DNA of 10,543 nt from a virus, in UHGV virus genome UHGV-0380619. One strand, written 5' to 3'. Positions within the stretch are counted from its first letter, which is position 1, and the number at the start of each line of letters is the position of its first letter. The position numbers were made by a program, and so were the translations under genes. Under the pieces are notes generated by a model, which saw only the letters and a list, made by a program, of their open reading frames with translations, had not been told where the DNA came from and searched no databases. Of the stretch, positions 1-10,092 are shown piece after piece.

Positions 1-3
1 CCT

Positions 4-186
4 TCACGATTTCAACGCAATGACCAGTTTTGCCAGCCCATACAGCATCGGGGACACAGCAACACCGACCGCCACCCACTTAATGGCAAAAGCCAGTGCT
101 CTGCTGATGTCATCAGTTACAGGCGCTTTCAGTTCAAGGCCGTTTTTCATAGTCAACCTCAACAGAATTCGTTTATACTTTTCCAT
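4..186 (-). CDS. Small hypothetical protein (about 60 aa) with a hydrophobic C-terminal segment, downstream of the endolysin
   Basis: Complete ORF with stop at 4-6. ATG at 186..184 is preceded by AGGGAG but with only 3-nt spacing. Alternative starts: GTG at 219 (track start) or ATG at 150 preceded by GAGGT. C-terminal stretch AFAIKWVAVGVAVSPMLYGLAKLVIAL is hydrophobic. No family recognised. Confidence 0.3.
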   Translation of the reverse strand: MEKYKRILLRLTMKNGLELKAPVTDDISRALAFAIKWVAVGVAVSPMLYGLAKLVIALKS

Positions 187-220
187 GTTCTCCCTTGCCT
201 TATCCAAGGTCAGAAACACA

Positions 221-253
221 AAACCCCGCTTGCAGCCAACAAACGGGGTTTTT
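221..253. terminator. Putative bidirectional intrinsic terminator between the endolysin and the small ORF
   Basis: Hairpin CCCCGCTTG/CAAACGGGG at 224-248 (9-bp stem, one mismatch, 7-nt loop), flanked by AAAA upstream and TTTTT (249-253) downstream on the plus strand; the minus-strand copy is followed by TTTTGTGTTT. Confidence 0.45.
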
Positions 254-342
254 ACTTTTATTCACTTAGGTTTTGCCAGTTCTCAGGATTTCGTGTTATC
301 CGTCCGCATTAGCCAACGTCATTTTTCAACAAAATATTCTGC

Positions 343-2794: not shown

Positions 2795-2852
2795 GCCAAA
2801 ATACCGCCGCAGTCGGCATTCACAACCACCAGCGCATTTAACGTTCAGCCAT

Positions 2853-2877
2853 AAAAAAACCCGCTCGCGGCGGGTTT
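2853..2877 (-). terminator. tR'-like intrinsic terminator downstream of Q
   Basis: On the minus strand: AAACCCGC-CGCGA-GCGGGUUU hairpin followed by U7 (plus-strand A7 at 2853-2859, hairpin 2860-2874). Confidence 0.55.
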
Positions 2878-2945
2878 AAGCTGTGTGGCGAAGTAACCAC
2901 TCTTAACATACTGACATACTTTTTGCGGACCGCACTAATCATTTT
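2878..2945 (-). promoter_or_regulatory. Candidate late promoter / Q-utilisation region (pR'-qut-like), position inferred
   Basis: Directly downstream of the Q stop. On the minus strand there are tandem -10-like hexamers TATGTC and TATGTT (plus-strand direct repeat ACATACT-G-ACATACT at 2906-2920), followed about 40 nt later by the terminator. No convincing -35 found. Confidence 0.25.
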
Positions 2946-3326
2946 TTACTTTTTTAGCAGCCAGTCGTCCATCTCCAGTCTTACCCCCAGCACAGACAAA
3001 CATCCGTCAATAAACCCTTCGGCTATCTGCATCTCAATTCGTATTGCTTTTTCGCTTTTCTTTCTCGTCCTGGCTATCTGTCTTTTTGATATTCGCAACA
3101 AATAATGAGCAATGAGAAGCGAATACTCCTCAGGTTTTTTCTGCTTCAGACGAGCAAGACAGTTTTCAATGATAAGTCCGTCATCATCGCAGCAGGCCGG
3201 ACGTGGTTTAGTGGCAGATGGTAAAAGTCCTTTGAATCCGGCAGCGATCGGAGAATAGTCCACCCCGGTGTTACCACTTGCAGCCCATGCCCCCCAGCGT
3301 TCAAGAACCATCTGAATATCACGCAT
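2946..3326 (-). CDS. Q: Late-gene antiterminator Q (phage 82/21 / QuuD-like family)
   Basis: ATG at 3326 (MRDIQMVLERWGAWAA...) preceded by GGAGAAAG; the track's upstream start at 3341 is TTG. Cys-rich motif ACCDDDGLIIENC. Position immediately upstream of the tR'-like terminator and late region. Confidence 0.8.
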   Translation of the reverse strand: MRDIQMVLERWGAWAASGNTGVDYSPIAAGFKGLLPSATKPRPACCDDDGLIIENCLARLKQKKPEEYSLLIAHYLLRISKRQIARTRKKSEKAIRIEMQIAEGFIDGCLSVLGVRLEMDDWLLKK

Positions 3327-3343
3327 CAACTTTCTCCACAAAA

Positions 3344-8549: not shown

Positions 8550-9187
8550 GCGTTAGTTTCTCCACAACCAGAAGCAATCGACGCCACGACGCCCGGAGCT
8601 GCACACTCGCGGGCGTTACTCTTTTCCGGCGCACAAAAAACACGAAATAACAGTGTTAAATGCTCCTGCCACTTCGCCATTACTTGGTAGCTGTTCTCTT
8701 CGATTTGCTCACGCTCAGCTTGGTCAATAACTCCATCAGCAGTTGCCTTGCGTAAGTACTGGGAATGCTTGCCAATCCATTCTATTGACTCCATCAGCCG
8801 CTGATTAATGTCACCATTGTCAATGTCATCAATGACCACCAGCGGCACAAACACCCCATTACTACGACGGGCTATTGCATCCGTTACATGCCTGGTACCA
8901 CTGGCATCCTGTAAAACCATGGCCCACTCAAGTGGAAAAATTTGATCCCCACCGCTACGCAGTCTGTTATGCAATTGATCTTTTGCTGGGGTGATATCAT
9001 CAGATTTATACAAACCAAGAATTTCTGCTGCTTCCTCATAGCCATGAGGTAAATCAGCAATCGTTCTTCGTATTGCTGCCACCAGCCATGCTGGTTGCTT
9101 ATCAACTTTCCATTCAGGTTCTTTACCCACGTTTAAGCCCTCATATCTGTGGTTTCTGTAAATCGATTTATCCATTAGATTTTTCAT
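8546..9187 (-). CDS. CII-like / YdaT-like early regulatory protein (family uncertain)
   Basis: Long ORF immediately downstream of the Cro-like gene. Start not resolved: ATG at 9187 or 9175, both with weak SD; the track start at 9244 is GTG and would overlap cro extensively. Confidence 0.5.
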
Positions 9188-9368
9188 AAAGCTCAGGTTT
9201 AAATGGCAACCGTCCGCAAGTTCTATATGCAGCCTCTGCTGCACGTCCTTTTGGAATTAACTGGCCAGGACGGTTTCGCCACTGATAAACGGCTTCAGTT
9301 GTTATGCCGAAAAAAGCAGCAACTTTCTCAATGCTGCCGAAGTAGCTTTCGATATCGTCAGTCGTCAT
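9168..9368 (-). CDS. cro: Cro-like repressor (YdaS-type HTH)
   Basis: 66-aa ORF. ATG at 9368 preceded by GGAGGG. Motif VAAFFGITTEAVYQWRNRPGQLIPKGRAAEA resembles the YdaS/Cro family. Divergent from the CI gene across an operator-rich intergenic region. Confidence 0.75.
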   Translation of the reverse strand: MTTDDIESYFGSIEKVAAFFGITTEAVYQWRNRPGQLIPKGRAAEAAYRTCGRLPFKPELYEKSNG

Positions 9369-9465
9369 ATGCCCTCCAAACTAAGTTTTATTAGATGTTA
9401 ATTATCAATCTATCTTAGGTCAATAAAAACTAAGATTACTTAGTAATTAAAGAAATGGTGCTCCT
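9369..9465. promoter_or_regulatory. Immunity-region control region: three operator-like 18-bp sites plus candidate pR (and implied pRM)
   Basis: Sites AACTAAGTTTTATTAGAT (9379-9396), AACTAAGATTACTTAGTA (9428-9445) and a weaker reverse-orientation site ACCTAAGATAGATTGATA (9403-9420), with centres 24-25 bp apart. Candidate minus-strand pR: -35 TTGACC (9418-9423), 17-bp spacer, -10 TAACAT (9395-9400). Confidence 0.55.
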
Positions 9466-10092
9466 ATGGAAACGGTTGGTCAGCGTATAAAAGCTCTGAG
9501 AAGAGTTACCAGAACGTCCCAGAAAGAATTGGGTAAATTTTGTGGAGTAAGTGACGTTGCTGTGGGGTACTGGGAGAAAGACATCAATGTCCCTGGTGGG
9601 GAAGCACTTTCAAAATTAGCGAAGTTCTTCAATACGTCAATAGATTACATTCTTTATGGTGCGGAGTTTGAAGGCAAACTCGTCACAAACATGCGCAGAG
9701 TTCCTGTAATCTCGTGGGTTCAGGCTGGGCAGTTTACTGAGTGCAGGACAGCAGAAGTGTTTAGTGAAGTAGACAAGTGGGTAGATACATCATTAAAGAT
9801 TGGTGATAACTCATTTGCATTGGAGGTTAAAGGCGACTCCATGACTAACCCTAACGGCCTCCCAACAATACCAGAAGGCGCAACAGTGATTGTAGATCCT
9901 GATGCAGAACCCCGGCATGGAAAAATAGTCATCGCTAGACTTGATGGAACAAACGAAGCCACAGTAAAAAAATTAGTTATCGATGGCCCTCAAAAGTTTT
10001 TAGTGCCATTAAATCCCCGGTACCCCAACATCCCGATCAATGGTAATTGCCTCATCATTGGTGTAGTCAAAGGAGTTCAATACGAACTCTAG
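9466..10092 (+). CDS. cI: CI-type prophage repressor (HTH-XRE N-domain plus LexA-like S24 autopeptidase C-domain)
   Basis: 208-aa ORF. N-terminal HTH (QKELGKFCGVSDVAVGYWEKD). C-terminal S24 motifs: GDSM (Ser nucleophile) and VKKL (Lys), with a QAG candidate cleavage region. Confidence 0.9.
   Translation: METVGQRIKALRRVTRTSQKELGKFCGVSDVAVGYWEKDINVPGGEALSKLAKFFNTSIDYILYGAEFEGKLVTNMRRVPVISWVQAGQFTECRTAEVFSEVDKWVDTSLKIGDNSFALEVKGDSMTNPNGLPTIPEGATVIVDPDAEPRHGKIVIARLDGTNEATVKKLVIDGPQKFLVPLNPRYPNIPINGNCLIIGVVKGVQYEL

Follow-up and report, generated by a model that had tools for sequence, protein, structure and literature searches.

The DNA analysed here, called the window, is one stretch of 10,543 nucleotides (nt) from the virus genome UHGV-0380619. 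Its left end is part of a lambdoid late region, and the minus strand is the coding strand of all genes in this region. Behind the gene of an endolysin of the signal-anchor-release (SAR) type, this strand carries a terminator-like hairpin, then a leader of about 35 nt and then orf60, an open reading frame (ORF) of 60 amino acids (aa) close to the window edge (Table 1). An earlier note on this DNA, made from the sequence alone, had described a terminator and a small ORF with a hydrophobic tail in the position where spanin genes normally sit. The first 900 positions of the window are 100% identical in at least 24 complete Escherichia coli genomes, including strain 118UI, whose locus is called L001 in the following.

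Table 1. Features at the left end of the window and, where indicated, in the locus of E. coli 118UI (L001)
Feature	Position	Strand	Remarks
Start of the ribosome-binding site GGGAGG of orf43	1..3	minus	Positions 3-1 are its first three bases; the rest lies beyond the window edge
orf60, 60 aa (MEKYKRILLRLTMKNGLELKAPVTDDISRALAFAIKWVAVGVAVSPMLYGLAKLVIALKS)	4..186	minus	Stop codon 6-4; ORF list, PGAP, PHROG 1115, dN/dS
Conserved internal ATG, Met13 (150->148), with GAGG (160->157)	148..160	minus	48-aa form possible
Sigma-70-like promoter TAGTCA-18-TATACT	150..179	plus	Predicted; inside orf60 codons 3-13
Predicted cis-antisense RNA, ~74 nt	186..262	plus	Hypothetical; from promoter-like site, hairpin and T tract
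Shine-Dalgarno-like AAGGGAG for ATG186	190..196 (196->190)	minus	Kept in the leaders of E. coli and of Salmonella
Leader stem-loop CCTTG-(7-nt variable loop)-CAAGG	193..209	minus	3' arm overlaps the Shine-Dalgarno sequence
Hairpin, outer stem AAAACCCCG...CGGGGTTTT	220..252	both	Flanked on both sides by A and T runs; resembles a terminator in either direction
SAR-type endolysin (rrrQ-like lysozyme)	343-876	minus	PF00959, 3.2e-24; PHROG 7 endolysin; annotated 'lysozyme' or rrrQ
DUF1327/YdfR-family gene	1220-1564	minus	PF07041, 7e-43; between pinholin and SAR endolysin
S21-type pinholin	1569-1784	minus	PF04971, 1.4e-35
STnc100 small RNA family	1950-2149	minus	RF02076, full-length match, 133 bits, E = 1.9e-30
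Three phage-borne tRNA genes, Met(cat), Arg(tcg), Arg(tct)	2226-2475	minus
Q antiterminator	2946-3341	minus	PF06530
orf43 (L001)	8912-9043
Rz (L001)	9055-9513		PF03245, 1.7e-49
Rz1, embedded in Rz (L001)	9266-9451		PF06085, 8.6e-20

orf60 and the genes that follow it

The longest mechanical ORF at this site covers 4..219 on the minus strand and would yield 71 aa from a GTG; a start at ATG186 yields 60 aa and a start at ATG150 yields 48 aa. The earlier note had hesitated between the two ATG codons. ATG186 is the best-supported start: the 60-aa protein is annotated by PGAP at the identical locus in 118UI (WP_021566721.1), a Shine-Dalgarno-like sequence stands in front of the codon, and the KYKR..LRL motif was retained through synonymous changes in a paralogous subfamily. 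A second start at ATG150 is possible, judging from the GAGG that lies 6 nt upstream of it. Met13 and the rare AGG arginine codon that forms this GAGG are retained in nearly all variants, and the 48-aa form is the choice of many gene callers. GTG219 lies within the tail of the hairpin and is an unlikely start.

Selection on orf60 was analysed with 11 full-length variants from E. coli, Escherichia marmotae and Salmonella that were compared pairwise by the Nei-Gojobori method. In frame, the proportion of differences was 0.35 at synonymous sites (pS) and 0.085 at nonsynonymous sites (pN), giving a ratio of nonsynonymous to synonymous divergence (dN/dS, omega) of 0.19, whereas omega was 0.83 in the +1 frame and 3.3 in the +2 frame. 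The value was 0.11 for residues 30-60, which include the predicted helix, and 0.29 for residues 13-29. The gene is thus conserved in related prophages with a bias towards synonymous changes, which the earlier note had named as a point on which the ORF would stand or fall. Since purifying selection was found in frame only, orf60 is a real protein-coding gene. A plus-strand ORF of 128 aa at 20-406 was rejected as an antisense reading, as the signal of selection sits in the minus-strand frame. We conclude that orf60 is a genuine gene under purifying selection, with a small membrane protein as its predicted product.

The hydrophobic C-terminus noticed earlier was confirmed. The best hydropathy window covers residues 38-58 with a Kyte-Doolittle mean of 1.97, compared with 1.72 for the helix of the pinholin encoded in the same DNA, and this sole hydrophobic segment stops 2 residues short of the C-terminus. 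AlphaFold2, run with a 15-sequence alignment, modelled one long helix at residues 23-59 with a predicted local distance difference test (pLDDT) score of about 90 and a weaker helix at residues 2-14. Neither a signal peptide nor a lipobox was found. The N-terminal 29 residues contain 7 lysines or arginines and 4 aspartates or glutamates. The protein is therefore predicted to have a single C-terminal transmembrane helix after a basic N-terminal part of about 28 aa, and by the positive-inside rule this N-terminus should be cytoplasmic.

The homology search gave matches to three PHROG families, all catalogued as function unknown. PHROG 1115 matched over the full length (1.4e-42, residues 1-60 to profile positions 8-67 of 67), PHROG 4493 matched at 2.6e-30, and the C-terminus of PHROG 3246 matched residues 23-60. 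In Pfam, NCBIfam, PADLOC and the PDB sequences, orf60, orf43 (see below) and the paralogs had zero matches. This included a Pfam search of orf60 at E <= 1, which returned neither Hok/Gef (PF01848) nor DUF2730 nor a holin family, the holin families of PHROG, and the PADLOC models for anti-phage defence, where no family matched orf60, orf43 or the short paralog. A literature search for proteins of the three PHROGs with Sakai locus tags, RefSeq accessions and topics found no paper. Without a Pfam match, a lipobox or a periplasmic domain, orf60 is not a spanin; inner-membrane spanins combine an N-terminal transmembrane domain with a periplasmic coiled coil (PF03245), and outer-membrane or unimolecular spanins are lipoproteins with a lipobox. 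With 60 aa and one predicted helix it is within the size of the type I toxins, which are hydrophobic membrane proteins of about 60 aa or fewer.

The spanin genes themselves are intact. In the identical 118UI they start about 155 nt beyond window position 1, with Rz1 embedded in Rz. An rrrQ-type endolysin lies upstream in 79 of the 80 closest IMG/VR loci, Rz follows downstream within 900 nt in 78, and 62 contain orf43. The latter is a 43-aa transmembrane ORF (MSDKLITLAKILCVIVGISFSLMLVALFLSMAWMMLSSSGLLG), which in 118UI begins 15 nt past the orf60 stop behind its GGGAGG and has a stop codon that overlaps the GTG at the head of Rz. Its dN/dS was 0.29 in frame, as against 0.9 and 2.1 out of frame. 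Together, orf60 and orf43 are an insertion of about 480 bp before the spanin genes that is cut by the window edge, and not a replacement of these genes. The apparent occupation of the spanin position is therefore an artefact of the window edge.

In relatives, the junction between endolysin and Rz carries antirepressor genes and several other small transmembrane ORFs. The small ORFs are orf43, an ORF of 31 aa, a paralog of 28 aa that looks like a fragment, and an ORF of 32 aa that lacks annotation; they occur in varying combinations, and their stop and start codons often overlap. The 32-aa transmembrane ORF (MAEKLSTWKFILIWLVFVIMASGYFIGQIRWW) was seen in E. coli strain 20 (L014, ~1620-1720) between the hairpin and Rz; its stop lies 2 nt before the Rz start, and it ends with ...IRWW like the short orf60 paralogs.

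The hairpin, the leader and the gene as a mobile unit

The hairpin with its flanking A and T runs, which the earlier note had reported, was recovered by a consensus scan at 252->220 of the minus strand with 14 pairs and a 5-nt loop. On this strand the terminator-like site reads AAAACCCCGTTTGTTGGCTGCAAGCGGGGTTTT and then GTGTTTCTGA. On the plus strand the T tract is longer and extends over 249-262 (TTTTTACTTTTATT). RNA folding gave the hairpin as the centroid structure on both strands, with z = -2.1 for the minus and -1.6 for the plus strand. The number of such sites was unexceptional, with 3 terminator-like sites in 2.2 kb and 2.2 +/- 1.6 in shuffled sequences, so it is conservation and not the site count that sets the hairpin above chance.

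An equivalent hairpin precedes the gene in every homologous context examined except for the second of two tandem copies in the Salmonella locus L019, which has a family copy directly upstream instead. The outer 9 bp (A4-CCCCG...CGGGG-T4) were invariant in 16 of the 17 family contexts that were folded, and the remaining one, L017, has the stem GCCCG...CGGGC. The inner stem and the loop were found in 12 differing versions that each still pair. All 12 fold better than the mean of their own shuffles, a modest support since 2-28% of the shuffles were equal or better. When 13 variants were analysed with RNAalifold, 18 pairs were obtained and none was changed on both sides. This lack of formal covariation is explained by the outer stems, which are invariant, and by the variable inner stems, which are misaligned.

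In the contexts with GH108 or M15 endolysins and in those from Salmonella and Klebsiella, what lies 5' of the hairpin bears no relation to the window, and the outer stem is still there. Since the hairpin travels with the small gene behind unrelated upstream genes, it is not simply the terminator of the endolysin gene. A window-type hairpin was also found behind rrrQ with other cargo following (L012, L013 and L014), which indicates recombination joints on both sides of the hairpin. In a search with window positions 1-260, some E. coli records matched only the first 73 bases, that is the hairpin and leader without the ORF.

The hairpin and ATG186 are separated by 33 nt. The leader of the window is 84-97% identical to that of eight other variants and 89% identical to the leaders of the Salmonella loci L015 and L022, whereas the synonymous sites in these two Salmonella pairs differ by 42-53%. 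As the leader is more conserved than the synonymous sites of the gene, it is itself under constraint. Its stem is invariant save for one G-U change and its loop differs between variants; a two-sided change never occurs, so that covariation speaks neither for nor against the stem. A longer leader is present in the lineages of Salmonella, GER2 and Sp4, where the same Shine-Dalgarno sequence serves an 8-codon mini-ORF (ATG GGT AGG GAG GTT CTT TCC CTG TGA). In a GTGA arrangement, the stop codon of this mini-ORF overlaps with the GTG or TTG at which the gene starts, and a second GGGAGG is sequestered in an AGGGA-(variable loop)-TCCCT hairpin. We infer from its sequence that this leader has the anatomy of translational coupling. 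The leader of the window looks like a deletion derivative of it, in which the first Shine-Dalgarno sequence and ATG would have been fused to codon 2.

A single-sequence query with orf60 found 121 related proteins and a profile found 354, and every one of them is named 'hypothetical'. The family was met only in prophages of enterobacteria; the named sources are Escherichia, Salmonella and Klebsiella, with the exception of one partial entry that bears the label Pseudomonas aeruginosa. Of 5426 complete E. coli genomes, 1043 (about 19%), including O157:H7, contain 80% or more of window 1-260, and 2132 match some part of it. Identical copies of orf60 are carried by seven deposited complete phage genomes, including the PhiR12 series. 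Among the GTDB species representatives, a scan with the family alignment gave 45 pattern matches and no confirmed relative, and a degenerate DNA pattern for FAIKWVAVG gave only 4 chance matches in unrelated Firmicutes and Bacteroidota. As these representatives lack the gene, E. coli genomes, phage records, exact-protein look-ups and IMG/VR were used instead.

The family has the invariant core ...A.AFAI(K/R).VA.. and occurs in two main forms, the window form ending with ...SPMLYGLAKLVIALKS and a short form ending with ...AIAVLVWAIRWW, which are connected by intermediates such as P0131. The short form is found in phage GER2, in Sakai Sp4 (ECs_1094, annotated from an internal ATG) and in phiSTEC1575, and its stop overlaps the Rz start. 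The short paralog adjoining Rz in GER2 and Sakai Sp4 is PHROG 4493.

The gene follows directly after the endolysin gene in five non-homologous types of lysis cassette with unrelated holins and endolysins. The first has an S21-type pinholin and a lysozyme, the second a lambda-S-type holin with either a GH19 or an unclassified endolysin of 138-140 aa, and the third an HP1-type holin and a lysozyme; an Rz-type spanin gene follows in these three. The fourth and fifth have holin_8 and holin_3_7 with GH108 and with an M15 peptidase, respectively. In phages of the last two types, orf60 or orf57 (and orf44) is followed by a 60-aa lipoprotein with the lipobox L-V-G-C (L011 1912-2094, L004 2649-2831 and L025 ~2840-3020), whose frame appears disrupted in L025. 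An Rz-type inner-membrane spanin was neither annotated nor called in the 2.5 kb flanking the GH108/M15 cassettes of these three loci. Taken together, our results show that the cassette of hairpin, leader and gene moves as a unit between phage late operons. The gene of the orf60 family is thus portable among late regions, and its preference for the endolysin-spanin junction is strong without being exclusive.

A candidate antisense RNA and the possible roles of orf60

A promoter scan of the region gave a sole match near the hairpin, which lies on the plus strand at 150-179. An RNA starting from this promoter-like site and ending in the T tract at 249-262 would be complementary to the start codon, the Shine-Dalgarno sequence (anti-Shine-Dalgarno UCUCCCUU) and the leader of orf60, and would form two stem-loops. 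The homologous site reads TAGTCA-18-TATAAT in the Klebsiella locus L029, TTGTCA-18-TATACT in the Salmonella locus L024, TGGACA-18-TATACT in phage GER2 and TTGGCC-16-TATACT in L017. The promoter-like motif is kept in 78 of the 80 closest IMG/VR loci.

No Rfam family was found at the site in the window and 8 relatives, the only match being a sub-threshold one to the rimP leader at 188-262 of the plus strand (25.6 bits, E = 0.27). Among the 63 Hfq-bound small RNA candidates of O157 Sakai, none maps to the endolysin-spanin junction. The known small RNAs of O157 prophages were considered and rejected as counterparts. Sp6 has EcOnc33 in the 3' end of its esterase gene, upstream of the holin; Sp10 has EcOnc11 (HnrS) 3' of Rz; EcOnc35 and EcOnc52 are located elsewhere in Sp4; and the Pas RNAs map upstream of the holin. 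Just downstream of Rz, Sakai Sp9, Sp10 and Sp12 encode the Hfq-dependent HnrS (EcOnc10-12) on the opposite strand (in Sp10 at L033 ~1520-1568). Its sequence is unrelated to the hairpin module, and its position beside Rz shows that antisense-oriented small RNA genes exist within a few hundred bases of the junction in related prophages.

Context is the strongest functional clue for orf60. In the account that we favour with moderate confidence, a two-gene insertion separates the SAR endolysin from Rz/Rz1 in a lambdoid E. coli prophage, and window 4-253 is the first half of it and encodes a non-essential accessory of lysis or of the envelope. The hairpin with its conserved outer stem, the structured leader of about 35 nt and the 60-aa gene would form a self-contained mobile cassette. 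orf60 would be co-transcribed with the lysis genes on the late message, with the Q-modified polymerase reading through the hairpin. The protein would be inserted into the inner membrane with its basic N-terminus in the cytoplasm and would assist there in a step of lysis or of the envelope, rather than act as a substitute for the spanins. Its translation would be tightly controlled by the leader, in the sister lineages by the GTGA overlap with the mini-ORF and the sequestered ribosome-binding site, and a cis-antisense RNA may add a further layer of control. A lysis accessory, which the earlier note had also considered, is the most likely role, as suggested by the position of the gene alone.

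Several observations weigh against this account. The gene is dispensable, since K-12 Qin has rrrQ joined directly to rzpQ and other prophages likewise join the endolysin gene to Rz without orf60. Family copies also occur outside of lysis cassettes: L017 has its copy after the tail-fibre genes, L019 has tandem copies of 47 aa and 55 aa (2856-3168) at the very end of the prophage, between a tail-fibre/SASA esterase gene and the tail assembly chaperone, and L029 has its copy inside the baseplate operon of a Klebsiella myovirus. These copies in tail modules speak for portable cargo of the late region whose function is independent of lysis. The searches of Pfam, NCBIfam, PADLOC and the PDB sequences gave no functional lead for the family. 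Codons 2-12 had an omega of 0.75, indicating weak constraint at the protein level on the N-terminal 11 codons. The read-through of the hairpin by the Q-modified polymerase is taken from lambda biology.

Alternatively, the locus could be a module resembling toxin-antitoxin systems of type I, in which the membrane protein is a potential toxin and the RNA of about 74 nt (about 100 nt in the mini-ORF lineages) its cis-antisense regulator. This we consider possible but doubtful. The hairpin would then be primarily the terminator of the antisense RNA, which would mask the ribosome-binding site and, where there is one, the mini-ORF, like Sok does on mok/hok. The protein would be silent in the lysogen until late transcription overwhelms the RNA, which is compatible with a role as a lysis accessory. 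The promoter-like site was found at the homologous position of the opposite strand in 5 of 5 loci and is the only or nearly the only match per 700 nt, where 0.5-0.9 are expected. Its -10 sequence TATACT is invariant in 15 of 17 distinct variants (TATAAT in Klebsiella, TACACT in L027), and the tyrosine codon that supplies the critical A2 of this box is TAT in every variant and never TAC. Codons in the spacer vary more than the codons under the two hexamers, and L017, where the N-terminus of the protein differs, still has a -35 box at another spacing. In codons 2-12 the synonymous divergence was 0.125, and in the parts that follow it was 0.32 and 0.43. The antisense side of the hairpin has the longer T tract, and in the Klebsiella baseplate operon a sense terminator would be expected to do harm but an antisense one would not. 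The coupling of the mini-ORF by GTGA and the sequestered ribosome-binding site resemble mok/hok, and hokW-sokW of the Shiga toxin (Stx) phage Sp5, which assists phage release (PMC8621323), is a precedent. However, both promoter boxes fall on conserved codons (K-Y-K and L-T-M), so that it could be the protein that is conserved there. Just a few synonymous sites can tell constraint on the protein from constraint on the promoter, and the variants are related and not independent. The negative results with the Sakai candidates and Rfam count against the RNA, no pair was changed on both sides in RNAalifold, the scan gave no separate promoter for a toxin mRNA, and the transmembrane helix is C-terminal, unlike that of most known type I toxins. 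It is conceivable, at the same tentative level, that hairpin, leader and orf60 are an undescribed mobile cassette of this type in phage late operons, with a tail-anchored protein under an antisense RNA of about 74-100 nt. The RNA would keep the protein silent in the lysogen, a mok-like coupled mini-ORF would add control in the sister lineages, and the protein would act late in infection on the inner membrane.

The other explanations are less probable. The earlier note had suggested a moron, that is a gene expressed in the lysogen with the hairpin as an ordinary insulating terminator and a protein for superinfection exclusion or envelope modification, for example. The junction of endolysin and Rz is known as a hot spot of insertion, members of the family are also found behind tail-fibre genes, a frequent place of exclusion genes such as cor, and the L017 gene has terminator-like sites on both flanks. 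Nevertheless, the moron fits poorly and is unlikely. The gene does not fit the definition, since its terminator-like hairpin is located upstream rather than downstream and it lacks its own promoter: no gene-strand sigma-70-like promoter was found between hairpin and start in the window or in four relatives, and no minus-strand promoter-like site was found within 1-2200. The gap of just 33 nt is filled by the conserved leader. The next ORF begins 15 nt after the orf60 stop, and the protein has no signal peptide, lipobox or PADLOC match. A regulator of the endolysin or holin, which would release the SAR endolysin like a releasin or act as an antiholin, possibly in two forms from Met1 and Met13, appears quite unlikely. 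orf60 directly follows a SAR endolysin whose short cytoplasmic N-terminus is basic, its predicted topology is that of a basic domain in the cytoplasm held by a membrane anchor, the conserved Met13 and its GAGG are reminiscent of the dual-start motifs known from holins, and the releasin of phage Mu is a precedent (PMC9239132). On the other hand, neither DUF2730 nor the holin families of Pfam matched even at E <= 1, the cassette already has a pinholin, and the family accompanies non-SAR endolysins (GH19, GH108, M15), five holin types and tail modules, so that it depends on no single partner. Finally, a chance ORF, or a spanin replacement as with the disruptin of phage phiKT, is highly improbable. 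The ORF is short and the window ends 3 nt after its stop with no spanin visible inside, but a chance ORF is ruled out by the purifying selection confined to its frame, and a disruptin by the intact Rz/Rz1 genes downstream and by the segment itself, which is a plain transmembrane helix and not a cationic amphipathic peptide.

Neighbouring genes and comparison with known systems

Upstream of the hairpin, a spacer of 90 nt separates it from the stop codon of the endolysin gene, whose product has a SAR-like hydrophobic stretch after the basic start MNAKIRY... The YdfR gene in front of it is another conserved passenger of the lysis cassette with unknown function. Antisense to this gene and to the YdfR-endolysin spacer, a plus-strand ORF of 90 aa (982-1254; WP_000369850.1 in 118UI) is shortened to 41 aa in the window by a single C->T change at 1105 (CAA->TAA, 1105-1107), the sole difference between the window and L001 within 880-1300. 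The STnc100 match lies between the tRNA genes and the pinholin gene, where lambdoid and Stx prophages have the short transcript of the late promoter; by this match, the STnc100-type RNA is taken to mark the late-promoter region. The tRNA called Met(cat) in the window is annotated as tRNA-Ile in L001. A 92-aa remnant of a DNA methyltransferase was found at 2516-2794 of the minus strand, and its equivalent in L001 is annotated as a partial pseudogene without the N-terminus.

orf60 is a member of a real and common family that was previously catalogued only as PHROGs, and what the present analysis adds is the architecture of the module and a candidate for antisense control. The gene is found in about one in five complete E. 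coli genomes and in prophages of Salmonella and Klebsiella; it is under clear purifying selection, and every database calls it 'hypothetical'. The endolysin-spanin junction of lambdoid lysis cassettes holds a zone in which small membrane ORFs with coupled translation turn over (orf60, orf43, and the orf31 and orf28 types), and current models of lysis do not account for these ORFs. If the antisense reading is true, phage late operons would harbour a new family of membrane proteins under RNA control. When a small hydrophobic ORF follows an endolysin gene at the edge of a contig or window, annotators should not take it as a sign that the spanin is missing or replaced.

Among the known systems, the three PHROGs are catalogue entries only, to which orf60 belongs by profile match. 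As regards the moron, the lambdoid concept reportedly formulated by Juhala and co-workers in 2000 comprises a promoter, a gene and a terminator. orf60 likewise is extra DNA inserted where modules of the late operon meet, has a terminator-like hairpin as a boundary and is highly mobile between phages. It differs in that the hairpin is upstream, no gene-strand promoter was found and the only promoter-like element faces the opposite way. The disruptin of phiKT substitutes for missing spanins, which are present here.

P2 LysA is a non-essential accessory of lysis timing. Like the LysA type and gp25 of phage Mu, orf60 encodes a small membrane-anchored protein of the lysis region, located beside a SAR endolysin and before the spanins, with a predicted soluble part in the cytoplasm and probably the status of a non-essential accessory. 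Mu gp25, the releasin, is a membrane-tethered cytoplasmic protein of the DUF2730 family that releases SAR endolysins and has an N-terminal transmembrane domain (PMC9239132). In contrast, the helix of orf60 is C-terminal, DUF2730 is not matched, and the family is independent of the endolysin type and also occurs in tail modules.

With hok/sok, including hokW-sokW, orf60 shares a small hydrophobic membrane protein in a prophage and, in the sister lineages, a coupled upstream ORF with a sequestered ribosome-binding site. The antisense RNA predicted over the initiation region of orf60, ending in an intrinsic terminator, would be a further likeness. The differences are that orf60 has no sequence relation to Hok and no dedicated toxin promoter was found in the scan, and that its helix lies at the C-terminus.

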